From a virus, in the IMG/VR virus record IMGVR_UViG_3300045988_154841, positions 1-64,000 of that record: 64,000 nucleotides of DNA; one strand, 5' to 3'. Under the pieces are notes generated by a model. The model did no database searches. It was not told where the DNA came from and worked only from the letters and a program-made list of their open reading frames with translations. The position numbers and the translations under genes are program-made. This document shows positions 1,877 to 56,225 of this stretch, piece after piece. Each line of letters starts with the position of its first letter. Position 1 is the stretch's first letter.

Positions 1877-2998
1877 TTAACCTTCATAATCTCTTACTGC
1901 TATTGCACTGGGGAACCTGGGGATGCCATAATCACTGAGTTCCTGGTATTTCACGGTACATTGTTTTCCTATTAGGCTTTTTCTATTTACCCAGTAGGAG
2001 GTTCTTAGGGCCTTTGAGCCTTGAGGCCTAGCATTAAATTCCTTACCGTTCTTTGCTTTTAGGACGAATATGCCTGTACCTTTATCCCTGCCAGTTGCCT
2101 CTATCACGTCTATGATTGGGAATTCCTCGTCGAAGAACCTCTTAAGCTTTATCAGGTTGTTGGAACGGTATCCAATTTCATAAAGGCCTTGGAAGTTCCT
2201 TATGATTACTCCCTCATAGCCCTGCTTAACCATCTTATCGTGATATTCATATATCTCTTCTAGATTATTGGCTATGATAGTATCTAAGAACTTAATTGGG
2301 TCATTCTTACCTACCTTCTTCTTATCAGATTTTAATAGCTTGAATTGACGGTCGTAGTTTATTACTCCTTCTACCGGCTTATCATATACGATGATGTTTA
2401 TCTTATCAGTATCTTTGGATAGCCTTTTTACTGCTGAGATGATGCCTTGAAAGGTTAGGTCTCCATGATTATATAGCTCTCCATCCAAGGGAAGTATTTC
2501 TGAATGGTCCTCTAAGTACTTCTGGATGTGAGGTATGTTCAGGTCTTTACCTCTTCTAGATTTGAGATGTACACCCTCAGCATCTTTATACATGATACAC
2601 CTTACGCCGTCTAGTTTAGCTTGAACCATGCAGGGGAATGAAATGCGTTTTTCGTCCCATTTAATTGCTAGCATGGGCTCTGGGCTAGCCTTTTCTTCAA
2701 CCAATTGTTCATTATAACCTTTATCTTTAAGCCTAGCTATAATTGACTTAGCCTCCCTTATTGCTTGTTCCCAAGCCGAAGTTTGATTAGACCTTCCCAG
2801 ATTTTTACCCTCTGTATAAAGGTAGTGGTCGTAGGTGATTTTACCATTTGGCTCTATCTTTTTCTTAGTAGTCATTACTACTTTTTCTGTAGAATAGAAC
2901 CTAACGATTGTCTTGAAAGACCTTACTTGCCCAGACTTAGTCTTATTATATAATTTCTTAAAGGGCTTTCGCTTAACTGGTTTCTTATTTCTCTTCAT
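1877..2998 (-). CDS. ATP-dependent DNA ligase
   Basis: Motif I is KLDGVRC (adenylation Lys), with LDGELY, EGVIIRN and LIKLKRF matching motifs III, IV and V. I prefer the ATG at 2998 (TAAcATG just after the upstream stop) over the track start at 3025. Confidence 0.85.
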   Translation of the reverse strand: MKRNKKPVKRKPFKKLYNKTKSGQVRSFKTIVRFYSTEKVVMTTKKKIEPNGKITYDHYLYTEGKNLGRSNQTSAWEQAIREAKSIIARLKDKGYNEQLVEEKASPEPMLAIKWDEKRISFPCMVQAKLDGVRCIMYKDAEGVHLKSRRGKDLNIPHIQKYLEDHSEILPLDGELYNHGDLTFQGIISAVKRLSKDTDKINIIVYDKPVEGVINYDRQFKLLKSDKKKVGKNDPIKFLDTIIANNLEEIYEYHDKMVKQGYEGVIIRNFQGLYEIGYRSNNLIKLKRFFDEEFPIIDVIEATGRDKGTGIFVLKAKNGKEFNARPQGSKALRTSYWVNRKSLIGKQCTVKYQELSDYGIPRFPSAIAVRDYEG

Positions 2999-2999
2999 G

Positions 3000-3332
3000 T
3001 TAGTAAATCTTTTTATAGAAGCCAAGAAAATAACCTATTGAATATATCAAAGAACTTAATTTGTTCCTATTTTGAATATGTTCTATAGCGTTATCTGTGA
3101 ATTCATATAATATCTCCAGTTTATCCACTAGCCTATTGTAGTGATCTACTTCGGAAGCTTTCTTATAAGACTTATATTCTATGCTTAACATCAATAACCT
3201 TATGTCTCTTGATGTTATATGCTCAAATTCTAGATCTTTTATGCCTGAAGCCTCTTCGTCTAACCTTGCTTCAAACTTATTATCGACAAAACCCACTAAC
3301 CAAACGAGTGAGTATTTCATATCTTTATCCAT
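3000..3332 (-). CDS. Hypothetical protein
   Basis: This is a 110-aa ORF packed tightly within the operon. I recognised no motif. Confidence 0.6.
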   Translation of the reverse strand: MDKDMKYSLVWLVGFVDNKFEARLDEEASGIKDLEFEHITSRDIRLLMLSIEYKSYKKASEVDHYNRLVDKLEILYEFTDNAIEHIQNRNKLSSLIYSIGYFLGFYKKIY

Positions 3333-5140: not shown

Positions 5141-5683
5141 ATGGAAGTAACAGTAAAACAATTGATTTCATGTGGAGTATCTTCATCAAAAGCTGTGATA
5201 TATGCTCCAATTATCAGCCAATATTCAGGAGATTTTGGTATTAATACTCCTATGAGAATGGCTCATTTTTTAGCTCAGGTATTACATGAGAGTGGATGTT
5301 TTGTGTATGTTAAGGAATTGGCTAGTGGAGCAGCTTATGATACTGGTAAGAAAGCTCAGGCTCTTGGTAATACACCTAAGGCAGATGGTGATGGTCAAAA
5401 GTACAAAGGTAGAGGATTAATACAGGTGACTGGTACTAATAACTATCGAGCTTGTGGTAAATTCTTTGGCCAGGATTTCTTGACACACCCAGAATTATTA
5501 GAGAAACCAGAATGGGCTTTTAGGTCTGCGGGATGGTTTTGGAAAACTGCTAAATGTAATGAATTAGCTGATAAGGACGAATTTACTCAAATAACTCGTA
5601 AAATCAACGGAGGTACCAACGGTCTTAATAGTAGGTTAGCTTTTCTAGCTAAAACTAAAAAAGCTTTTGGTGTAATAAAGTAA
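5141..5683 (+). CDS. Endolysin, glycoside hydrolase family 19 (chitinase-like) type
   Basis: AHFLAQVLHESG and YKGRGLIQVTGTNNY match the GH19 / phage lysozyme signature (HES...GRG-x-IQ-x-T-x-x-x-NY). Confidence 0.8.
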   Translation: MEVTVKQLISCGVSSSKAVIYAPIISQYSGDFGINTPMRMAHFLAQVLHESGCFVYVKELASGAAYDTGKKAQALGNTPKADGDGQKYKGRGLIQVTGTNNYRACGKFFGQDFLTHPELLEKPEWAFRSAGWFWKTAKCNELADKDEFTQITRKINGGTNGLNSRLAFLAKTKKAFGVIK

Positions 5684-5686
5684 TAT

Positions 5687-6784
5687 ATGGGATCTCTAAA
5701 TGTATTAGGTGTTTCAGCAGGGCAGGGAGCCCTGCTGTTCCCATTTATGAAGGAACCTGGTTTTAATGTTTTAGCTAATGTAGAACCGAGAGCTGTATTT
5801 CATACTCCAAAAGACGAACAATGGAAGCTAAATTTCAAAAACATACCCTTTTACAGGGATTTCTCGGAATTGGATAGTCTGACTTCAACGGTAGATATAA
5901 TAGTATCATCTCCAGATTGTGGAGCTTCTTCAATTATGAGATTATCTAAGGTGAAAGAATTAGGCAACCCTGAGAAGAATAAATCTCTAAACCTAACCTT
6001 GCAGGCCATACAAAAGTATCAGCCAAAGGTATTTTTATTAGAGAATTTACCTAGGTTGGTTAACCTACTGCCTGAAGAGTATCTTAGTGAGGCTTTATCA
6101 ACTTACCGATTAGTATATCACCAAAGGTCCGTATCAGATTATGGCAACTCTCAAGTATCTAGGAAAAGGTTAGTTATAATAGGCATTAAAAGAGGCTGTA
6201 AGAAATATTATAATTTGTTCGATGAAGTATTTAAAGTAAATACTCCAAAACTCACTAGAAACATTCTAGAAGTTGCCCAGTATAAAGGTAATATTGATAA
6301 TCATATGATACCGTTAGATAAAAAATTAGCGATGTATGATTATCGTAAATTGCCTGATACAACTACTTTAACGGTAAAGCAAATACACAAGCTATGGAAG
6401 AAAGACTTCAAGTTAGAAAAGAAATGGCCGATTAAGACTGCTAAGATGAGTACTTTACCTGGAGTATATAGGTTAGAGAATGACAAAGCTCCACTTACTT
6501 TAAGACCTGCTGATAGACAGTTTAGACCCGACGGTTGGCCACTTGGTATATTAGATTTCAAAAACATCATGGGATTCCCAAAGGAATTTAAGATTTACAT
6601 TGAACAAGGGGATAGGTATTTATATTGCCTTAATAAGGCAAGGTATACCTTAGCCAAGGGGTCAGTTTTTGAAATTGGGATTTGGTTTTTGGCATGCCTT
6701 AAAGGCCTTAAATTAAATCCTAAAAAGGTTAAAAAGAAACCAAAAGAGGTTAAAGGAATACCAAAAAAAGGTACACTTTTTTAA
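5687..6784 (+). CDS. DNA (cytosine-5)-methyltransferase-like protein
   Basis: Motif I-like GVSAGQG, motif IV-like SSPDCGASS, motif VI FLLENLPRL (ENV-type) and motif VIII QVSRKRLVIIG (QxRxR) are present. The tail is Lys-rich. Confidence 0.6.
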   Translation: MGSLNVLGVSAGQGALLFPFMKEPGFNVLANVEPRAVFHTPKDEQWKLNFKNIPFYRDFSELDSLTSTVDIIVSSPDCGASSIMRLSKVKELGNPEKNKSLNLTLQAIQKYQPKVFLLENLPRLVNLLPEEYLSEALSTYRLVYHQRSVSDYGNSQVSRKRLVIIGIKRGCKKYYNLFDEVFKVNTPKLTRNILEVAQYKGNIDNHMIPLDKKLAMYDYRKLPDTTTLTVKQIHKLWKKDFKLEKKWPIKTAKMSTLPGVYRLENDKAPLTLRPADRQFRPDGWPLGILDFKNIMGFPKEFKIYIEQGDRYLYCLNKARYTLAKGSVFEIGIWFLACLKGLKLNPKKVKKKPKEVKGIPKKGTLF

Positions 6785-45696: not shown

Positions 45697-45941
45697 AAAA
45701 TCTACTTAATTGCTTTTGGTACTATGTACGTATATGGATGAACAATCCAGAAGAAGGAATTTATCTTCAGGATGATATTTCTTCAAAACTCGGTAGGAAA
45801 GAGGATATACATCGAGTACTAAATAAGTTAGACCAGGAATTACAAAATCAAGGTATAAGTAAGGTATTTGCCAGAAAACAAGGCATGACCCTACAAGATT
45901 TAATAACACAAATAAACAACTTTACAAATGGAAAGAATTAG
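45693..45941 (+). CDS. Hypothetical protein
   Basis: This 82-aa ORF has an ATGA overlap with the upstream gene. Confidence 0.5.
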   Translation: MKNLLNCFWYYVRIWMNNPEEGIYLQDDISSKLGRKEDIHRVLNKLDQELQNQGISKVFARKQGMTLQDLITQINNFTNGKN

Positions 45942-46500
45942 ATGTACAAGAGTAAGAGAGGTAGAATTACCCTCACGTAACAACCCCGGTGATGCAGGCT
46001 TAGATTTTTATATGCCAACAGACCTAACCATCAGTGACCTTATCAATGCAAACTCTAAGGTAGAGGATGTATGCTATAGTCAAAACTTTGCAGGAGTAGG
46101 TAACTTTTCATGTATCATCAACGATGAAAAGGTCCATCAACTGATTATCGGACCCAGGACAAGGATTATCATACCATCAGGTATCAAGGTACTGCTAGAA
46201 CCAGAAGCTTCAATGATGATGGCAGCTAATAAGTCAGGACGTTCTACCAAACAAGGATTGATATTCACTGCTGAGATCTGTGATTCACCATATAATGGAG
46301 AATATCACTTGGGCATCTACAACACAACTAGCCGTCAACAGGTAATCACGGCTGGAGAAGCGGTAGTACAATTCATCCACACTCCGGTATACCTATCTCA
46401 GGTAGAAGAGATCTCTAACGAAGAATATAAGGAAGAAGCTGAAACCTGGGGCACCAGAGGTGAAAAGGGAATGGGCTCAGGCAACAACAAAAAGAAATAA
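45928..46500 (+). CDS. dut: Trimeric dUTPase
   Basis: It has motif 1 PGDAGLDF, motif 3 CDSPYNGEYHLGIYN (D-x-x-Y-x-G-E) and motif 5 RGEKGMGSG. Confidence 0.85.
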   Translation: MERIRCTRVREVELPSRNNPGDAGLDFYMPTDLTISDLINANSKVEDVCYSQNFAGVGNFSCIINDEKVHQLIIGPRTRIIIPSGIKVLLEPEASMMMAANKSGRSTKQGLIFTAEICDSPYNGEYHLGIYNTTSRQQVITAGEAVVQFIHTPVYLSQVEEISNEEYKEEAETWGTRGEKGMGSGNNKKK

Positions 46501-46503
46501 CTC

Positions 46504-47373
46504 ATGGACGTAAGAAACATAAAAGAAGAAGCCCCTATTATTCAAGATGGTAAATATCTAGAGGGAATCTGGGAACTACAAAAGAAATTACTATCAGGCT
46601 ACATAGGTAAGATAGAAAAAGATCTGCCCATGTACCCAATAGATATGCACTCATATAAAGGCCAACAGGTACTAAAAGATTTCTCAGCTAGAGTTGTAGA
46701 AGAAACTGCTGAAGGTTATGAATCTACCTCTGCTGCTTTGAACTTAGCTGAAAAATATGGCTACAATATACATTCAATGGCTGATTCTGATTTTGAGATG
46801 CTGCTGAATCATCTGCAGAATTCAAACGAAGAACAGGCAGATGCTGTAGCTTTCTATGTAAGTCTGTTCCTCTATGCAAACGTAGATATACAGGATATCT
46901 ATGACTATTGTAATGATAGATTTGCAAAAGGAACTAACAAATATAAAGACCTAAACTCTATCATGTCTTTGGGACTAAGTCTACATCACAGAGAAGGTTA
47001 TCTCATGGAGGTTGAAAACCTATTCCCCTTGCTATCAGATGATGACTTAGAAGATCATGAGAAGGATGTAAATCATGTGAGAGGCTACATACCTGCCTTT
47101 ACAAAGATATGTTCAAAATCACACAGCCTAGAAGATCACATGCTTTGGTCAGTAACCTATCACATAAATGTTGCAAGGAATTTCTTAAAGAATAAACCTT
47201 GGAAGCAAACCCAGGAATTGACCGATATCACAAGGTATGATGAACAAATAGTATTGGGCTTTATAAAATATATGGGTTATCTGGCAGCTGTAGGATTTAC
47301 TGCAGAGTCCTTATATAACCTTTTCTATAAGAAACATAGAGTAAACATTTTTAGACAAACTAGCGGCTATTAA
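46504..47373 (+). CDS. All-alpha NTP pyrophosphohydrolase (MazG / dimeric dUTPase-like)
   Basis: It has the EExxE motif in ARVVEETAEGYE and the ExxD motif in NEEQADAVAFYVSLF. The ORF is 289 aa. Confidence 0.5.
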   Translation: MDVRNIKEEAPIIQDGKYLEGIWELQKKLLSGYIGKIEKDLPMYPIDMHSYKGQQVLKDFSARVVEETAEGYESTSAALNLAEKYGYNIHSMADSDFEMLLNHLQNSNEEQADAVAFYVSLFLYANVDIQDIYDYCNDRFAKGTNKYKDLNSIMSLGLSLHHREGYLMEVENLFPLLSDDDLEDHEKDVNHVRGYIPAFTKICSKSHSLEDHMLWSVTYHINVARNFLKNKPWKQTQELTDITRYDEQIVLGFIKYMGYLAAVGFTAESLYNLFYKKHRVNIFRQTSGY

Positions 47374-47375
47374 AT

Positions 47376-48311
47376 ATGTCAGGATTCAATAAAGCAATTC
47401 CGGGTATAACTGATAAGATGCACTCGGGAGATGAAACTGTACATGCCTTAGAATTCGCTACATCTCAGGAGGCTTGGGAAAAACTCAATGAGGCTTTCAT
47501 TAGGTTGGACCCAATCCTCTTTGAGAGAGGGGCAGTGGCTAATGCAGGAGTAGCAGTATCATATAATGTATTCGTAAAGATACGTAAAGCTTGGATAGAC
47601 CCAGAATTTGATTATGGTAGGCATTTCAATTACAAGGAGGCTAAGTGGACAAGCTTACTTAACAACTATCTAGACTTCAATCAGCTTGACTTGGTAAAGT
47701 CTCAAGTAAAGGTAAGGAAGGCTACCTATAATCAAAACTACAACATAAGCTATATATTCAACAACTCCCATAATAATGGTAAGCAATGTTTATTGTCTGC
47801 TACCTTCTCAAAGAGATTTCAGGAAGATGTGCCAGTAATAACTATGGTAATCCGAGCTTCAGAGATCACTAAGAGGTTGATTTTTGACTTCTTGCTTATT
47901 CAAAGAATGGCTGAATATGTATATGGAGTAAATCAAACGGTACAGATAAACTTGTTTGCTACTCAAATGTTTGGCAATCTTGAAACTTTGTTGATGTATG
48001 GAGCTCATAAGAAATTGAAGAAAGTAATCAAAGGCCTTGACCCAAATAACCCCTGGATTAAGAGGGTTATGGAAGTAAACGAAAAATTCTTGAAAGGCAC
48101 TGAAAAAGATTTCTCAAGCTATAAGGTATTCCTAAGAGCTTTCAAAGTATTAAGGCCAGACTTATATACCTATACTCCCCTATTGGCAAAGAATCTAATC
48201 ATAGAAGAGGATGATATAGAATACCCTGAGGATTATATAACCTATTCTCAAAGGAAGAAATATAAGAAAAAATACTTATCCAAAGCCAAACAAGTGAAAG
48301 ATGTTCAATAA
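47376..48311 (+). CDS. Divergent thymidylate-synthase-fold-like protein (tentative)
   Basis: GKQCLLSATFSKR...VITMVIRASEITKRLIFDFLLIQRMAEYV can be aligned by eye on the TS core (Cys...QRS-D...F-N/D). The terminal H-x-Y motif is absent. Confidence 0.3.
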   Translation: MSGFNKAIPGITDKMHSGDETVHALEFATSQEAWEKLNEAFIRLDPILFERGAVANAGVAVSYNVFVKIRKAWIDPEFDYGRHFNYKEAKWTSLLNNYLDFNQLDLVKSQVKVRKATYNQNYNISYIFNNSHNNGKQCLLSATFSKRFQEDVPVITMVIRASEITKRLIFDFLLIQRMAEYVYGVNQTVQINLFATQMFGNLETLLMYGAHKKLKKVIKGLDPNNPWIKRVMEVNEKFLKGTEKDFSSYKVFLRAFKVLRPDLYTYTPLLAKNLIIEEDDIEYPEDYITYSQRKKYKKKYLSKAKQVKDVQ

Positions 48312-48341
48312 GAATTTATAACAACATTAAAAATTTAAAAT

Positions 48342-49145
48342 ATGCGAATCTACAGTAGTTCAAGAGAATTGATGTCAGAAATGGGCAGAGACTTATGGGA
48401 GATGGGCCATGAAGTAAAACCCAAGACTTATCAGAATAAGGTTATCGAGGGTGATGAGAACTTTATCACCAAAGAGGAGTTCTGTAAGCAATATTGCTTG
48501 ACAAGTCTAAATGACCCTGAATTCCTATTTATCTTCACGAAGGCTAAAGAATGGGCAGATGCTGAACTTAAAGAAAGGCTATCTGGTGAATGTATAAATC
48601 CTGGAAAAGCTTGGGAATTGAGAAAAGAAGTATGGCAACAATTTTTGGTAGAAGATGACGAACCTACTCCGGATATGATAGAGCCTTATTACTTTGATTA
48701 TACTTACTCAGGTAGGATAAACAGTTCTGTGATAAATCCCGTATTTGATGAGAACGAAAGATATGATGTAGAAAGGAAATCGTATATTCCTACTATAGAG
48801 GCTTTAATTAAATTGTTGAAGTTTGACCCAGATACTAGGAAAGCAGTTTTACCAATTTTTACAGATCAGGACTGTGATTATTATGATGGTAGCCGAAGAA
48901 TACCCTGTTCAATGTATTACGGGTTTTTCATCAGAGAAGGTAAATTAAACATTACCTATCATCAGAGAAGTTCAGATTTTGTATGTCACTTCGGTAATGA
49001 TGTATACTTGGCCTGGAGAACAATGGAATATGTAGCTGATAGAGTTGGTGTTAAACCTGGACACCTTATTCATACTATAGATTCCTTGCATTGCTATAAG
49101 AAAGACTGGCATTTATTGAAAACCTCGGTAGATGATCTTATTTAA
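48342..49145 (+). CDS. Thymidylate synthase / dCMP hydroxymethylase family enzyme
   Basis: DPDTRKAVLPIF, IPCSMYYGFFIREGKLNITYHQRSSDFVCHFGNDVYLAW and DSLHCY align without gaps to E. coli ThyA [51 protein letters not shown] and GDTHLY. Confidence 0.8.
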   Translation: MRIYSSSRELMSEMGRDLWEMGHEVKPKTYQNKVIEGDENFITKEEFCKQYCLTSLNDPEFLFIFTKAKEWADAELKERLSGECINPGKAWELRKEVWQQFLVEDDEPTPDMIEPYYFDYTYSGRINSSVINPVFDENERYDVERKSYIPTIEALIKLLKFDPDTRKAVLPIFTDQDCDYYDGSRRIPCSMYYGFFIREGKLNITYHQRSSDFVCHFGNDVYLAWRTMEYVADRVGVKPGHLIHTIDSLHCYKKDWHLLKTSVDDLI

Positions 49146-49222: not shown

Positions 49223-51487
49223 ATGAGAACAAGATATAAGATAATAAAGAACTATACAGAACTAGACAGATTAATAGACTTATGTATTAAAACTGGAGTA
49301 GCATGTGTAGACTTCGAAACTAATGCTGTACCAATACATAACGAGGACTTCAGGCCTACTATATTATCCGTAACCTGTATGCCTGGTTTTGGTTGTTCTA
49401 TACCCTTGAGTCACTCAGAAACTAAAGCCTATACAGATAAGGGATGGTCCTGGAAAAGGGCTTTAAAAAAATTCAGTAGGAAGGTTATAGAAAATAGGTC
49501 AGTAGTAAAGATAGCTTGGAATGCCAAGTTTGACTTCGCTATATTTCAAAAATATGGCTTGTTCTATAGAGGTACTCTGTTAGATGGTATGCTTGCTAAG
49601 TATCTACTAAATGAAGAGAGGCCTAATGATCTAAAGGAGATGGTTAAAAGGTATATACCTGAGGCTGCTGGTTATGAATCAGATAAAGGCTTTGATAGAT
49701 TACCTTGGGATAAAAAGCCTCTAAAAGAACTTTGTAGATATGGCTGTCAAGATACAGATTATACATATAGGCTCATGATATTTTTTGAAAAGAAGCTGTT
49801 AGATATTAATATGTATGATTTATACCGTAATCTTATTATGCCCGCTAGCAGAGTACTACAAACTGTAGAATTTAATGGGTTATACCTAGATAGGGAGTTT
49901 AATCAAAAACTCCTTAGAGAATACGGTCCAAAAATAGAACAGGCTAAAAATACTTGTTTAAACTTACCAGTAGTAAAAAGGTTTCAGACTTGGTATAATA
50001 AACAGAAGATAGATAACTACATAAAAAACATTGAAAAAGAATTAGAGGAGTTAGACTACAATGATCCTAAGGACTCAAGAAAAATAGCTACTAGGGAAGC
50101 GAAAATAACCAATATAAGAGCAGGAATATTCTCTACTAAAAAGGAAAAAGAACTAAATCGAGATATAAACCTGGGCAGTCCCGTTGATCTACCAAAATTA
50201 CTATTCAGTGAAGAAGGTTTTAACTTCACACCTATAAAACAAACAGACTCAGGTAAGGACTCTACTGATGAAGAATCTTTAGTTGAGTTGCGTATGAAAA
50301 TAAAAAACCCAAAATCACCAAAAGCTATATTCTTAGATTCTTTACTAGAATTAAGGGGCTTAGAAAAAATGTATAAGACCTACATATTAGGTTGGTCAGA
50401 GAAAGTTCAGGATGATAGTTGCTTACATGGTAGGTTTAATATTGTTGGTACTACTAGCGGTAGGTTAAGTTCATCTGAGCCTAATATGCAACAGATACCA
50501 AAAACATCCGTAGACCCAAACATAAAGAAACAACTTATAGCTAGGCCAGGAACCTTATATATGGCTATGGACTTTAGTCAAGCTGAGTTAAGGATAATGG
50601 CTCATTTATCCGGAGATGAAACTTATTTGAGAGCTTTTGCAAATAACGAAGATCCTCACTTAGCTATTGCTGCAAAGAAATATGGAGTACCTTATAAAGA
50701 AGCTCTAGCTATTTACGAAGATGAAGATCATCCTGAACACAAGTTATGGAAGAATCGTAGAAAACAAGCAAAACAGATTGCCTTTGGTATCATATATGGT
50801 ATTCAAGCAAAGCTTTTATCTCAGAAACTATCCGATGTAAAAGAGGGCTTGATTGTTACACCCGAAGAAGCCCAACAACAGTTGGATGAGTTTTTTGAGG
50901 ATCACCCAAAGATAAAAAAATTCATGGCTAAACAAGAAAGGCTATTAAGGAAACACGGCTATATAACTTCCTTGTTTGGTAGAAGACGTAGATTACCTCA
51001 AGTATATTCAGATGACCGTTCTGAAGCTGCTTATGCTGTAAGGCTAAGCATAAATATGCCTTGTCAGAGTAGTGCATCCGATTTATGTTTATTTGGTTCG
51101 GTATTATTATATTGGCTAATGCACCAAGGTAAATTTCCTAAGATGGATTCTGTATGTTTGGTACATGATGCCAATTATTTTAATGTTGACCCAGGTACCA
51201 TAAATGTATGGACTGTATATCAAATGTGGGATATATTTAGAAACCCAAAAACTAAAAAGTATTTTGGTTTCAGTATAGATGATGTAGATATGTCTATGGA
51301 TTTTGGTATCGGTAGGTCTATGGCTGAAGAATTGCCCTTTATCCCTGGTTATGATTATAATAAAATGCTAGAGCCTGATTTTTCTGTTGAAGAATATATG
51401 TTAGAGCATAAGAAATACAAACATGTACAGATAAAGGACTTCCCTAAACTATTTAAAAAAGACTTTGATTATTATAATAAAAAATAG
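49223..51487 (+). CDS. Family A DNA polymerase with 3'-5' exonuclease domain
   Basis: The exonuclease motifs are Exo I VDFETN, Exo II NAKFDF and Exo III YGCQDTDYTY. The polymerase motifs are A MAMDFSQAELRIMAHLS, B RRKQAKQIAFGIIYG and C LVHDA. Confidence 0.95.
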   Translation: MRTRYKIIKNYTELDRLIDLCIKTGVACVDFETNAVPIHNEDFRPTILSVTCMPGFGCSIPLSHSETKAYTDKGWSWKRALKKFSRKVIENRSVVKIAWNAKFDFAIFQKYGLFYRGTLLDGMLAKYLLNEERPNDLKEMVKRYIPEAAGYESDKGFDRLPWDKKPLKELCRYGCQDTDYTYRLMIFFEKKLLDINMYDLYRNLIMPASRVLQTVEFNGLYLDREFNQKLLREYGPKIEQAKNTCLNLPVVKRFQTWYNKQKIDNYIKNIEKELEELDYNDPKDSRKIATREAKITNIRAGIFSTKKEKELNRDINLGSPVDLPKLLFSEEGFNFTPIKQTDSGKDSTDEESLVELRMKIKNPKSPKAIFLDSLLELRGLEKMYKTYILGWSEKVQDDSCLHGRFNIVGTTSGRLSSSEPNMQQIPKTSVDPNIKKQLIARPGTLYMAMDFSQAELRIMAHLSGDETYLRAFANNEDPHLAIAAKKYGVPYKEALAIYEDEDHPEHKLWKNRRKQAKQIAFGIIYGIQAKLLSQKLSDVKEGLIVTPEEAQQQLDEFFEDHPKIKKFMAKQERLLRKHGYITSLFGRRRRLPQVYSDDRSEAAYAVRLSINMPCQSSASDLCLFGSVLLYWLMHQGKFPKMDSVCLVHDANYFNVDPGTINVWTVYQMWDIFRNPKTKKYFGFSIDDVDMSMDFGIGRSMAEELPFIPGYDYNKMLEPDFSVEEYMLEHKKYKHVQIKDFPKLFKKDFDYYNKK

Positions 51488-52199: not shown

Positions 52200-52604
52200 A
52201 TGTACGTACCATTAAAGTTTATAACAAAAGAAGCTTCAGAAAAAATAGCATTTGCTATAGCTTCTAATGGAGGCTTTCCTACTGAAAATAGGGTATTGAT
52301 AGTAAGCCCCAAGAATCAGGAGGTTAAAGTTGGAAATATCTTGCTACCTCAAAATACTTCCAAGGAGAATATTCCAAATAAGGGAGTAGTTATATTAAAA
52401 GGTGAGATCTCTGAAGAGTATAAATCATACAAGGGTATTATTAATACCGGTACCATAGTAACTTATGGCTTATATGCCGGTAAAAAGATAGATTTTGATC
52501 CCAAAATATTCGAAGAACTAGATAATGACTTATTTAATGCCGAAGAGAATGAATTCTCGGTATTATCTCTAACTGAAATCATATTTACAGAACTTAATAA
52601 ATAA
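52200..52604 (+). CDS. GroES-like co-chaperonin
   Basis: NRVLIVSPKNQEVKVGNILLPQNTSKENIPNKGVVILKGE and TGTIVTYGLYAGKKIDF align by eye to GroES [39 protein letters not shown] and VGDIVIFNDGYGVKSEKID. Confidence 0.5.
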   Translation: MYVPLKFITKEASEKIAFAIASNGGFPTENRVLIVSPKNQEVKVGNILLPQNTSKENIPNKGVVILKGEISEEYKSYKGIINTGTIVTYGLYAGKKIDFDPKIFEELDNDLFNAEENEFSVLSLTEIIFTELNK

Positions 52605-54600: not shown

Positions 54601-55513
54601 AAAACATTACTTACTGGTGGATGGAGAGGGTCTCCTCCACCAGTCTTTTCATAAGTTTAAAAACTTAAGTTCACACGGTTGTCCGACTGGAGCTATATTT
54701 GGGTTTTTTAAATCACTAAGAACCTATCTGTATAGATTTCAGCCAGATGATGTATACATAGTATTTGATAACGGTCACTCTAAATATCGAGATAATATAT
54801 TGCCTTCATATAAAGAGCATCGGAAAAGAATAGATATAGATTATGAATCTCTAAGTAATCAAAAGAGAGAGATAATGAGGTTACTAAAAGCCTTTAATAT
54901 CAAATACATCTATGACCGTAAGAAGAAATGTAATTTTGAGGGAGATGACTTTATTGCTTGGTTGGTTTTAAAAGAACTACCTCGAAAACAAAAGATAACT
55001 ATAATAACAGCAGATAAGGATTTTAATCAGTTACTAAGGGGCCAATCTATAAAGATATATAATCCTAGGAAAGACCAATTGATATACGAAAGTAATTGCC
55101 AAACCATATATGGTTATAGGGCTAGTGAAACGGTTGATTTCTTAAGTTTAGTTGGAGATACCTCCGATGATATACCTGGTTATAAGGGTATAGGTGAAAA
55201 GAAAGCTAAGCTTTTCTTGGATAAATATGGCTCAATTGAAAATTACCTAAATCAGGATGAATGTTTACCTGATGATGAAGGCCACTCAAAGATGAAAGAA
55301 GTATGGAGTAGAAATAGACAATTAATAGACCTTAAATGGTTCTGTAATAACTATAAACCTGGGAAACTACCCTTAGTTGAATCTCAAAAAGGTGTAAGAC
55401 TAAAGGTAATCCAAAAGAAAGCAAAGCTTTATCAACTATATTCTTTTGTAGAAGATGCTTTTCTAAATGAGTTTAACAATCAATACAACAGGACTTATGA
55501 ACAAGGAAAATAA
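54581..55513 (+). CDS. 5'-3' exonuclease / flap endonuclease
   Basis: It has LLVDGEGLLH, VFDNGHSKYR, EGDDFIAW, ITADKDFNQL and the H3TH motif GDTSDDIPGYKGIGEKKA. Alternative starts are at 54584 and 54593. Confidence 0.9.
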   Translation: MMKQMNRKHYLLVDGEGLLHQSFHKFKNLSSHGCPTGAIFGFFKSLRTYLYRFQPDDVYIVFDNGHSKYRDNILPSYKEHRKRIDIDYESLSNQKREIMRLLKAFNIKYIYDRKKKCNFEGDDFIAWLVLKELPRKQKITIITADKDFNQLLRGQSIKIYNPRKDQLIYESNCQTIYGYRASETVDFLSLVGDTSDDIPGYKGIGEKKAKLFLDKYGSIENYLNQDECLPDDEGHSKMKEVWSRNRQLIDLKWFCNNYKPGKLPLVESQKGVRLKVIQKKAKLYQLYSFVEDAFLNEFNNQYNRTYEQGK

Positions 55514-56225
55514 AAAATTGATTATGTTTGCTGGGCCTTCGGGAATAGGTAAAACTACTTTGGCAAAAGGCGTAGAGGAATTATATTCAAGTCAATCCGT
55601 TGATATACCCTTTATATCTGGCTCAGTTTCTGATTTAGTAGAGTCTACTAGAGAAATGTCCCATAAAGATATGTTGAATAGAGACTCTATGACTCTGCAA
55701 ATGGAAGATTATCAGATATTAAATCTGAGAAAGAAGAAATTTAGCAATCAAATTGCCTCGGGTAAGAATTTTGTTTGTGACCGTAGTTTTTTAGATTCGG
55801 CTGCTTACTTTATATACAAACAGGCCGAAGTTATTGCAAAGTGCGAAGTAGAACACTTCCTTGCACTTAGTAAGTTATTAAGTGCAAACCATTGTACTCA
55901 CTTGATACTGTTGGATTTTACACCAAACATGATACAAGAATGGGTAACTGAAAACAATAATAAACGGATAACTAACAATTATTTTCAGATGGAGATAGCC
56001 CGTATTATGAATATGGTATTAGATCTTTGGGGTATAAGGTATACAGAAGATATATTTAGTTTAAAGGGTAAAAATATTTTCTCTGTACCAACCTCTCTAA
56101 AGTATGGAGCTAAAAGAGGTATTATAGACTCACCTTATGGGAAAGTAAATGTACTAGTTATACGTGAAAGTGTAAAAGAAATTAGAGAAAAACTAATAGA
56201 AAGGTTTATAGATGGAAAAATCTAG
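55497..56225 (+). CDS. P-loop deoxynucleoside / deoxynucleotide kinase
   Basis: It has the P-loop FAGPSGIGKTT and a dNK-like CDRSFLDSAAYF. The start is ambiguous (55467, 55497 or 55524). Confidence 0.65.
   Translation: MNKENKKLIMFAGPSGIGKTTLAKGVEELYSSQSVDIPFISGSVSDLVESTREMSHKDMLNRDSMTLQMEDYQILNLRKKKFSNQIASGKNFVCDRSFLDSAAYFIYKQAEVIAKCEVEHFLALSKLLSANHCTHLILLDFTPNMIQEWVTENNNKRITNNYFQMEIARIMNMVLDLWGIRYTEDIFSLKGKNIFSVPTSLKYGAKRGIIDSPYGKVNVLVIRESVKEIREKLIERFIDGKI

Follow-up and report, generated by a model that had tools for sequence, protein, structure and literature searches.

The question raised by this locus is what a phage does to deoxycytidine monophosphate (dCMP) by means of an enzyme with the fold of thymidylate synthase (TS). 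In this work, the gene in question, here called Y, was studied together with its upstream neighbour X in a window of 64,000 nucleotides (positions 1 to 64,000 of the virus record IMGVR_UViG_3300045988_154841 in IMG/VR). A first-pass annotation had read Y as a candidate dCMP hydroxymethylase or methylase. We find that Y is a confirmed TS-superfamily protein, with a match far beyond chance, and that it is genetically and obligately tied to a nucleoside triphosphate pyrophosphatase (NTP-PPase) and a second TS-fold protein, beside the replicative polymerase. Judged by its residues, Y belongs to a distinct, previously uncharacterised clade with Arg at position 143, Gln or Lys at 127, Ser or Thr at 147, Asp at both 169 and 177 and no C-terminal tail (the R143 clade; position numbers 143, 147, 169, 177 and the like are those of E. 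coli ThyA). The phage probably puts modified cytosine into its DNA. That Asp177 TS homologs are a sign of modified cytosine when they occur on contigs of uncultured phages was known before (MetaGPA, PMC8670742). The new points are a signature of Y that lies outside the three characterised classes, and its coupling to an unannotated TS-fold paralog that is invisible to domain-based surveys.

The two genes are:
48342..49145, + strand: Y, TS-superfamily enzyme of the R143 clade, ATG start, 267 aa (Pfam, PHROG, AlphaFold2 (AF2)/Foldseek, alignments)
47376..48311, + strand: X, unannotated and very divergent TS-fold paralog, 311 aa (AF2/Foldseek, deep-profile hhalign)

Fold, residue register and class signature of Y

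Y matches Pfam PF00303 (Thymidylat_synt) with E=1.7e-13 and 50.7 bits (cutoff 24.3), which places it in the superfamily, and it is matched by PHROG 160 'thymidylate synthase' with E=1.3e-28. The AF2 model, built on 51 homologs, reached a pLDDT (predicted local distance difference test) of 92.4 and a predicted template modelling (pTM) score of 0.91. Foldseek of this model against the PDB returned TS-fold matches only (E~1e-13, TM 0.6-0.78). The Pfam match halts at model position 221 of 266, and the chain stops 15 residues past Y252. In the interval before the Y start codon (48312..48341, aaaatttaaaat ATG), there is no Shine-Dalgarno-like purine run but only A/T-rich sequence; such a start would suit a host in which Shine-Dalgarno pairing is dispensable, although only this one start was looked at.

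The by-eye alignment behind the first-pass annotation used the Y peptide ...RRIPCSMYYGFFIREGKLNITYHQRSSDFVCHFGNDVYLAW...DSLHCY and a string of E. coli ThyA. Both had been quoted correctly (ThyA was checked against the b2827 translation), and the three elements said to be conserved, the nucleophilic Cys, QRS-x-D and H-x-Y, are C189, Q208-D212 and H250/Y252. All of R166, C189, Q208, R209, S210, D212, D220, H250 and Y252 are invariant across the 51 homologs. Further key residues are K28, W98, Y120-T121-Y122, R166-K167 and R186-I-P-C189-S190, followed in the C-terminal half by Q208-R-S-S-D212, D220 and H250-x-Y252. The superfamily catalytic set is kept in the form of C189 (=C146), R209-S210 (=R166-S167), Y122 (=Y94) and H250/Y252 (=H207/Y209). 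The other equivalences are D212=D169, D220=N177, W98=W80, R186=L143, S190=H147, K167=R127 and R166=R126'.

The Asp that had been placed in register with ThyA Asn177 is D220, and this register was recovered by phmmer against the TS chains of the PDB, by the hidden Markov model (HMM) of the 51-member family and by MAFFT. T4 gp42 likewise carries Asp at the specificity position, as the first-pass annotation had stated: hhalign pairs D220 with D179 of gp42 and MAFFT concurs. A single hhalign run against ThyA moved the helix by two residues and put G218 at N177. This register was discarded because the spacing from 169 to 177 is +8 in ThyA, gp42, the RB69-type enzyme and Y, and the other methods disagree with it. 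In the N-terminal half, E75 is invariant and its spacing from G82 fits Glu60/ThyA E58, but hhalign and MAFFT place the helix differently; the MAFFT positions for R21 and E58 were judged unreliable and were not used.

The exchange of Asn177 for Asp is an experimentally established switch from deoxyuridine monophosphate (dUMP) to dCMP (Hardy & Nalivaika 1992; Liu & Santi 1992, according to the parts of PMC13326640 and PMC8670742 that cite them), and N177D confers dCMP specificity (PMC13326640). The argument of the first-pass annotation on this switch is in line with these sources. Because Asp stands at position 177, dCMP is the predicted substrate of Y.

By comparing Y with reference sequences from annotated records (E. 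coli ThyA, PAKlein3, T4 gp42, Bosa and an RB69-like Mosigvirus enzyme), the following residues were obtained:
ThyA: L143, H147, D169, N177
PAKlein3: D143, N147, D169, N177
T4 gp42: D143, T147, D169, D177
Bosa: N143, P147, D169, D177
RB69-like enzyme: E143, T147, N169, D177
Y (window protein): R143, S147, D169, D177

PAKlein3 shows the pattern of a dUMP hydroxymethylase, and the record of Xanthomonas phage Bosa has a dCMP deaminase in cis. In the ICTV taxonomy, the subfamily of Bosa includes PaMx74. A hydrophobic L143 accompanies methylation, and Asp or Glu at 143 accompanies hydroxymethylation or hydroxylation (PMC13326640). In addition, D169N marks the flavin/O2-dependent 5-hydroxy-dCMP synthases, and all nine D169N homologs tested made 5-hydroxycytosine (5hoC). 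This 5-hydroxylation, known from RB69 gp48 and HY126 AfhB, is a third chemistry of Asp177 TS homologs (PMC13326640). From the ternary complex of T4 dCMP hydroxymethylase (dCH), the hydroxymethylase signature was described as Asp or Glu three residues before the catalytic Cys (Cys-3), Ser or Thr two residues before the catalytic Tyr (Tyr-2) and no C-terminal tail. The acidic residue at Cys-3 activates the substrate water in T4 dCH, where D145N is dead, and the C-terminal tail of TS closes the site for hydride transfer (PMC6400193). The ribose preference of MilA and BcmA goes with Lys at TS-R126' and Ala at TS-S167 (PMC5175136).

Y departs from ThyA by Asp220 in place of Asn177, Arg186 in place of Leu143, Ser190 in place of His147 and the missing tail. 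Its best score against the NCBIfam TS equivalogs was 53.1 bits (TIGR03283, cutoff 174.55), the others remaining at or below 42 bits against cutoffs of 108-427. The flavin 5-hydroxylase signature fails because D169 is kept: Asp212 is invariant in the homologs of Y, and of the N177D and L143E pair Y has the Asp, with Arg and not Glu at 143. Asp169, Trp80 and Tyr94 of the folate-type chemistry are kept in Y, whereas the flavin hydroxylase has N169 and lacks W80. For the Xp12 type, we took Asp177 together with a C-terminal domain as the mark, which is our reading of one reference (Bosa) and not a published rule; Y has Asp177 without this domain. It also carries R166 (=R126') and S210 (=S167), the deoxyribose pattern, and not the MilA/BcmA residues. 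With the T4 class it shares Asp at the Asn177 position and the absence of a TS tail. On these residues, Y falls outside all three characterised classes of dCMP-modifying enzymes.

The paralog X and its linkage to Y

X had no match in Pfam or NCBIfam, and 79 diverse members of its family were likewise without a Pfam match. BLASTP gave no match between X and Y, phmmer of X against the PDB returned Rab noise only, and hhalign with a shallow X alignment reached 0.3%; the kinship became visible only via the structure model and a deeper profile. The AF2 model of X has a pLDDT of 70.7, and its top 12 Foldseek matches in the PDB are all MilA, AfhB or T4 dCH. Among the BFVD viral models, the best matches belonged to its own uncharacterised family, followed by TS/dCH proteins. 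When 1.84 billion representatives were searched exhaustively with a profile, the X family came to only 157 clusters. The deep profile made from it matched the Y family in hhalign at 29.8% (E 5.6e-4), and among PDB sequences it touched only the AfhB entries 9iqc/9iqu. In the 79 diverse members K90, Y98, C138, R160 and D171 are invariant and E163 is nearly so, and hhalign pairs C138, R160, E163 and D171 of X with C189, R209, D212 and D220 of Y (=TS C146, R166, D169, N177). From the structure model and the deep profile, X is likely a very divergent TS-fold protein. It appears to keep the nucleophile Cys, the Arg that binds phosphate in cis and the Asp that recognises cytosine, and to lack the trans Arg pair. 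MetaGPA could not detect X because its analysis used Pfam domains and X has none.

Homologs of X are annotated 'pyrimidine hmase synthase' in MW202455 and PP693299. In the phage CPAS-15 (MN417334, L004 5208..5957), a 249 aa protein is annotated 'Colanic acid biosynthesis glycosyltransferase WcaC'. It was considered as a sign of a glycosylated base and rejected: the protein lacks Pfam support and proved homologous to X (hhalign 96.4%, E 1e-9), so that the WcaC annotation appears to be wrong.

More than 1,200 relatives of Y are known from gut metagenomes, most of them on contigs of 75-88 kb. X lies directly upstream of Y in 78 of the 80 IMG/VR loci, the remaining two contigs ending too soon to show it, and for every Y tested X was the next or next-but-one gene upstream. 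The closest cultured carriers of a Y homolog are C. perfringens phages (38% identity), in which the order is kinase, dUTPase_2, the 249 aa X homolog, TS and PolA. In the contig L094 it is dUTPase_2, X, TS, ligase, dCMP deaminase and PolA, and in L096 a 230 aa protein, X, a 203 aa protein, TS, PolA and kinase. A further distant X contig has dUTPase_2, a 163 aa protein and X, and the 3.6 kb contig P0357 has dUTPase_2, X and a metallophosphatase. The same module order was found in Pseudomonas phage Almagne, Microbacterium phage Huwbert, Gordonia phage Cleo and a spring-water (Manatee Spring) myovirus, whose upstream 'hypothetical' proteins match the X HMM with 71.8, 48.5, 33.2 and 17.9 bits. The order NTP-PPase, X, Y and PolA, together with the kinase, recurs across gut myoviruses, the C. 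perfringens phages, L094, L096, the Pseudomonas, Microbacterium and Gordonia phages and the spring-water phage. In four lineages the X stop and the Y start overlap by 1-4 nt. By tblastn with X alone, further carriers were found among phages of Pseudomonas (PMBT14), Serratia, Stutzerimonas, Yersinia and Brevundimonas.

Eight X-linked TS homologs were aligned. They have in common R126, Q/K127, R143, C146, S/T147, R166, S167, D169, D177 and H207, with Tyr or His at the T4-S94 position, and they end 8-18 residues past H-x-Y/F, compared with 55 in ThyA and 61 in Bosa of the Xp12 subfamily. The carriers of this clade are phages of Clostridium, Pseudomonas, Microbacterium and Gordonia as well as uncultured phages. 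In Huwbert (OR521080, L100 3410..7199), X (gp65), the R143-clade TS (gp67), a canonical ThyA (gp68) and a dCMP deaminase (gp70) stand side by side. This ThyA, adjoining the Y homolog, has L143, H147 and N177 and a 54-residue tail. The spring-water phage encodes ThyX besides Y. Since a canonical ThyA or ThyX is present in addition in these two phages, Y is not the thymidylate supplier.

Gene context, proposed pathway and competing explanations

The window covers most of a contractile-tailed phage genome of ~78 kb and ~35% GC, with genes for terminase, portal, major head protein, sheath, tape measure and baseplate. The phage is known from metagenomes only. Near-identical contigs of 76-78 kb exist, and the nearest GenBank records are uncultured human-gut phages with <70% nucleotide identity. 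A scan of GTDB genomes gave six contigs of metagenome-assembled genomes (L102-L107), and because these are binned to unrelated taxa, no host can be called. Their names (Clostridium, Collinsella, Dysosmobacter, Mycoplasma, an archaeon and Pirellulales) look like viral mis-binning. Y sits in the replication module. Upstream are a DnaB-like helicase, a primase, an SNF2-type helicase, the dUTPase, the NTP-PPase and X; downstream are PolA, a gp32-like protein, a RecA/UvsX-like protein, a 5'-3' exonuclease, a kinase-like P-loop protein and Mre11/Rad50-like proteins. The genes that bear on nucleotide supply and DNA modification are as follows:
45928..46500, + strand: trimeric dUTPase homolog (PF00692 E 2e-11; PDB dUTPases E 3e-8; NCBIfam dut below cutoff; PHROG 135)
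46504..47373, + strand: all-alpha NTP pyrophosphohydrolase, dimeric-dUTPase/MazG-like (PF08761 E 5e-5; PHROG 12184/173)
49223..51487, + strand: family A DNA polymerase with 3'-5' exonuclease, PolA (PF00476 E 1e-72; PF01612)
55467..56225, + strand: P-loop protein resembling deoxynucleoside monophosphate (dNMP) and thymidylate kinases (PF13521; weak dNK/Thymidylate_kin; PHROG 761/2107, 139; weak TIGR00041)
1877..3025, - strand: ATP-dependent DNA ligase (PF01068 + PF14743)
5687..6784, + strand: C5-cytosine DNA methyltransferase homolog (PF00145 E 7e-14; TIGR00675; motifs VSAGQG, SPDCG, LENL, QVSRKR)

The stop codon of the NTP-PPase gene ends 2 nt ahead of the X start, and on distant contigs the dUTPase_2 protein is directly upstream of X or one gene off. 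Over its full length the NTP-PPase is homologous to the CPAS-15 dUTPase_2 protein (E 1e-18), and its extreme C-terminal motif recurs in the T4 gp56 dCTPase (E 4e-5). It is a candidate dCTPase analogous to gp56. The protein at 55467..56225 (PHROG labels: thymidylate kinase for 761/2107, dNMP kinase for 139) is a candidate kinase for modified dCMP. The modified deoxynucleoside triphosphate would presumably be used by PolA, whose gene was downstream of Y in every lineage looked at. By analogy, these neighbours (NTP-PPase, dUTPase, kinase-like protein and PolA) fit a T4-like substitution kit of gp56, gp42 and gp1. The ligase adjoins the Y homolog in L094 and in the Manatee phage, and its domain pair PF01068/PF14743 is among the top MetaGPA associations with modified-cytosine contigs (PMC8670742). 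Between PolA and the gp32-like single-stranded DNA-binding protein there is a Cpn10/GroES-like co-chaperonin homolog (52200..52604, + strand; PF00166, E 2.7e-7).

We hypothesize that the gp56-like NTP-PPase, and perhaps also the dUTPase, converts dCTP/dUTP to monophosphates, and that Cys189 of Y then attacks C6 of dCMP while Asp220 holds N3/N4 of cytosine. Methylene-tetrahydrofolate would be the donor of a one-carbon unit to C5, as we infer because D169, W80 and Y94 are kept (Asp212, Trp98 and Tyr122 being retained for the transfer). The exocyclic methylene intermediate is most likely captured by water or another nucleophile, giving 5-hydroxymethyl-dCMP or a derivative; with no tail to close the site and a polar residue (Arg) at position 143, it would not be reduced. 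Arg186 together with Tyr120 or His may stand in for Asp145 and Ser94 of T4 dCH. X may act with Y, either as heterodimer partner or in a second C5-directed step. Finally, the kinase-like protein and host nucleoside diphosphate kinase would produce the triphosphate, which PolA would incorporate. An X-Y heterodimer would fit the exchanges in Y, which has lost R127 and acquired Arg143, and the absence of the Arg pair from X. The best explanation overall, pathway included, is that Y is a dCMP-specific enzyme of a previously uncharacterised clade that modifies C5 at the mononucleotide level, and we hold it with about even confidence.

Several observations weigh against this explanation. The residue at Cys-3 is not acidic but Arg186, and Arg is invariant there in the 51 homologs and the eight X-linked clade members; at Tyr-2, Y has Y120 (Y120-T121-Y122), which is replaced by His in the other sub-clade. 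The gp42 strings F-R-N-D and S-L-H-V-Y had been given correctly in the first-pass annotation and both are present in T4 gp42. The likeness it saw holds locally, in F-x-N-D and S-L-H-x-Y, and breaks down at the residues that define hydroxymethylation (Arg186, Tyr120). By sequence comparison, the nearest characterised relative of Y is the flavin hydroxylase class and not gp42: the hydroxylase class scores 54.7 bits with the HMM, against ~26 bits for ThyA and gp42, and hhalign aligns the Y family with it at 98.1% over 202 columns, compared with 92.7% over 103 columns for gp42. The equivalent of Glu58 is not reliably placed because hhalign and MAFFT conflict in the N-terminal half. In the 64-kb window, no glycosyl-, carbamoyl-, amino-acid or other group transferase that could use a hydroxymethyl handle was found, and for no carrier did a literature search turn up experimental data on its DNA. 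Moreover, the conserved C5 methyltransferase homolog implies unsubstituted C5 in the DNA. In this protein the equivalents of motifs I, IV, VI and VIII are recognisable, motif IV being unusual (SP[DS]CG in place of PC). The gene belongs to the core of the phage group (1,145 homologs, ~68% identity, 75-88 kb contigs), and its product is 47% identical to the copy in MT121964. A probable endolysin of glycoside hydrolase family 19 (chitinase-like; 5141..5683, + strand) is encoded directly upstream of it.

The methyltransferase is in tension with complete replacement because it would have no substrate if every cytosine were C5-substituted. Three readings are possible: partial replacement, another target, or recruitment to the modified base. 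From this tension, we therefore regard some C5-modified cytosine in the virion DNA as likely and complete replacement as doubtful. The suggestion that the phage may carry modified cytosine is thus supported in that the gene context fits a supply of modified dCTP, and it is weakened for DNA with modified cytosine only.

The rival explanations differ in the product that they assign to Y. A dCMP methylase like that of Xp12/PaMx74, with C replaced by 5-methylcytosine (5mC) and part of the pool deaminated for dTTP, is rather unlikely. Asp177 with D169 is also the signature of Bosa of the Xp12 subfamily, no transferases for a hydroxymethyl handle were found in the window, and N229D/N177D mutants of ordinary TS are reported to methylate dCMP. 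A dCMP deaminase lies in cis with Y in L094, Almagne, Huwbert and Cleo, an arrangement that a preprint (10.1101/2024.12.05.627091) ties to 5mC phages, five of the seven TS homologs tested there having made 5-methyl-dCMP. On the other hand, the whole TS-like C-terminal segment kept by Bosa (61 residues) is missing in the Y clade (8-18), and it is this segment that closes the site for hydride transfer (PMC6400193). A fully 5-methylated cytosine would also leave the conserved C5-methyltransferase useless. TET/JBP dioxygenase, dihydrofolate reductase (DHFR), ThyX and zinc dCMP deaminase were sought in the 64-kb window and none was detected, and the lack of the deaminase and DHFR argues against the methylase. 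The window leaves out about 14 kb of the genome; the 10 kb past its 3' end are without informative Pfam matches. A flavin/O2-dependent dCMP 5-hydroxylase (5-hydroxy-dCMP synthase) like RB69 gp48 or HY126 AfhB is suggested by the best profile match and by the top PDB sequence matches of Y, 9iqu/9iqc (E 8.5e-13; described as HY126 dCMP hydroxylase AfhB and as riboflavin-dependent monooxygenase with dCMP and FAD), and both enzymes are short, tail-less chains with Asp177. This reading is nevertheless quite improbable: the diagnostic D169N is missing, with Asp212 invariant in the 51 homologs and in all eight clade members, position 143 is Arg and not Glu, W80 is kept in Y while absent from the hydroxylase, and neither arabinose/hexose activation genes nor glycosyltransferases were found in the window.

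That Y is a divergent thymidylate synthase converting dUMP to deoxythymidine monophosphate (dTMP), in a phage with unmodified DNA, is very improbable. Its homologs are so annotated in databases, no other ThyA or ThyX was seen in the 64-kb window, and the conserved C5 DNA methyltransferase suits canonical cytosine. Nevertheless, an invariant Asp occupies the position where a real TS excludes dCMP, Y is far under all TS equivalog cutoffs with H147, L143, R127 and the tail all changed, and relatives have a canonical ThyA or ThyX besides Y. A different possibility is that X and Y perform chemistry new to the superfamily, as an obligate heterodimer or in a two-step route in which X re-activates the product of Y by adding its Cys to C6 so that another nucleophile can be installed, giving a new deoxycytidine derivative. 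R143, Q/K127, S/T147 and Tyr/His at the S94 position match no characterised class, and X keeps residues for covalent catalysis on a cytosine nucleotide (C138, R160, D171, perhaps Y98 and W91). The loss of R127 and the gain of a cis Arg143 in Y, beside an X without the trans Arg pair, could be compensatory. The translational coupling in four lineages and the higher conservation of X than of Y (~70% vs ~60%) point in the same direction. This proposal is purely inferential, and in P0357 a metallophosphatase, not a TS homolog, follows X (although the contig has only 3.6 kb), an extra gene separates X and Y in L096 and Huwbert, and the catalytic set of Y is complete and could function alone as a homodimer. 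We consider it unlikely. Equally speculative is the broader view that the NTP-PPase/X/Y triad is an unrecognised widespread phage pathway, with two TS-fold proteins that would probably be heterodimeric and a cytosine derivative other than 5mC, 5-hydroxymethylcytosine (5hmC) or 5hoC. In such a pathway, the cis Arg143 of Y would replace the trans arginines that X cannot supply, and the methyltransferase may act on the derivative or on residual C.

Returning to the C5-modifying dCMP enzyme as the preferred explanation, several products are candidates for Y. Of the pair 'hydroxymethylase or methylase' in the first-pass annotation, the dCMP substrate stands as predicted from Asp177; for the reaction, the T4 signature failed, the reductive Leu143 and tail are missing, and 5-hydroxylation is known as a third chemistry. 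A 5-hydroxymethyl type leads the candidates, somewhat short of an even chance. Something new, possibly dependent on X, comes next as a minority possibility, a 5-methyl type is unlikely, and a 5-hydroxy product is improbable. Plain dTMP synthesis is the least credible outcome.

Significance and comparison with known systems

Every pre-replicative cytosine modification known from phages, namely 5mC, 5hmC and, since 2025-26, 5hoC, starts with an Asp177 TS homolog. Residue signatures are currently used for predicting the product from sequence. The R143 clade breaks these rules, so that a label of 'thymidylate synthase' or 'dCMP hydroxymethylase' assigned automatically to its members cannot be trusted. 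The product is open to direct determination because several carriers have been cultured, and Huwbert would lend itself to experiments that separate the roles of X, Y, ThyA and dCMP deaminase. The identity of the product bears on phage resistance to restriction and CRISPR, on sequencing bias against such gut phages and on enzymes for modified DNA. If the triad were to act as a pathway of its own, the TS homologs that modify dCMP would have a fourth chemistry.

Metavirome contigs with modified cytosine are enriched in Asp177 TS homologs (MetaGPA, PMC8670742), and NTP-PPase and PolA domains are also associated with such contigs (PMC8670742; preprint 10.1101/2024.12.05.627091). The window shares with the MetaGPA network the Asp177 TS homolog, the NTP pyrophosphohydrolase, PolA and the DNA ligase domains, but no carbamoyltransferase or zinc deaminase was found in it. 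Compared with E. coli ThyA, Y has the same fold and the same C146, R166, S167, D169, W80, Y94, H207 and Y209, and it differs by N177D, L143R, H147S, R127K and the absence of the tail. The Xp12/PaMx74-type enzyme (Bosa) resembles Y in Asp177 and Asp169, in the linked NTP-PPase and in PolA, and the dCMP deaminase is present in several X-Y lineages. However, Bosa has a 61-residue C-terminal domain, both trans arginines, Asn143 and Pro147, and no X paralog is annotated adjoining it. RB69 gp48 and HY126 AfhB (9iqu, 9iqc) have in common with Y the TS fold, the Cys nucleophile, Asp177, the absence of a tail and the context of a phage replication module. Y differs from them by Asp169, Arg143 and Trp80 and by having no linked sugar-activation or glycosyltransferase genes. 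X accompanies Y, whereas no X was seen beside the RB69-type gene at the p000v locus. This gene of Escherichia phage p000v (MK047717, L001 1300..2016) is annotated 'deoxycytidylate 5-hydroxymethyltransferase' and has D169N/L143E, so the annotation is probably outdated. As for T4 gp42 (1b5d, 6a9a), Asp145 corresponds to Arg186 in Y, Ser94 to Tyr120 and the second trans Arg to Lys167, and the window, unlike T4, is without glucosyltransferases. On the other hand, Y and gp42 share the equivalent of Asp179, F-x-N-D, S-L-H-x-Y, Lys28-Thr29, Trp82 ('IWQQV' vs 'VWQQF') and the tail-less end, and both genomes encode a gp56-like NTP-PPase and a dNMP kinase.

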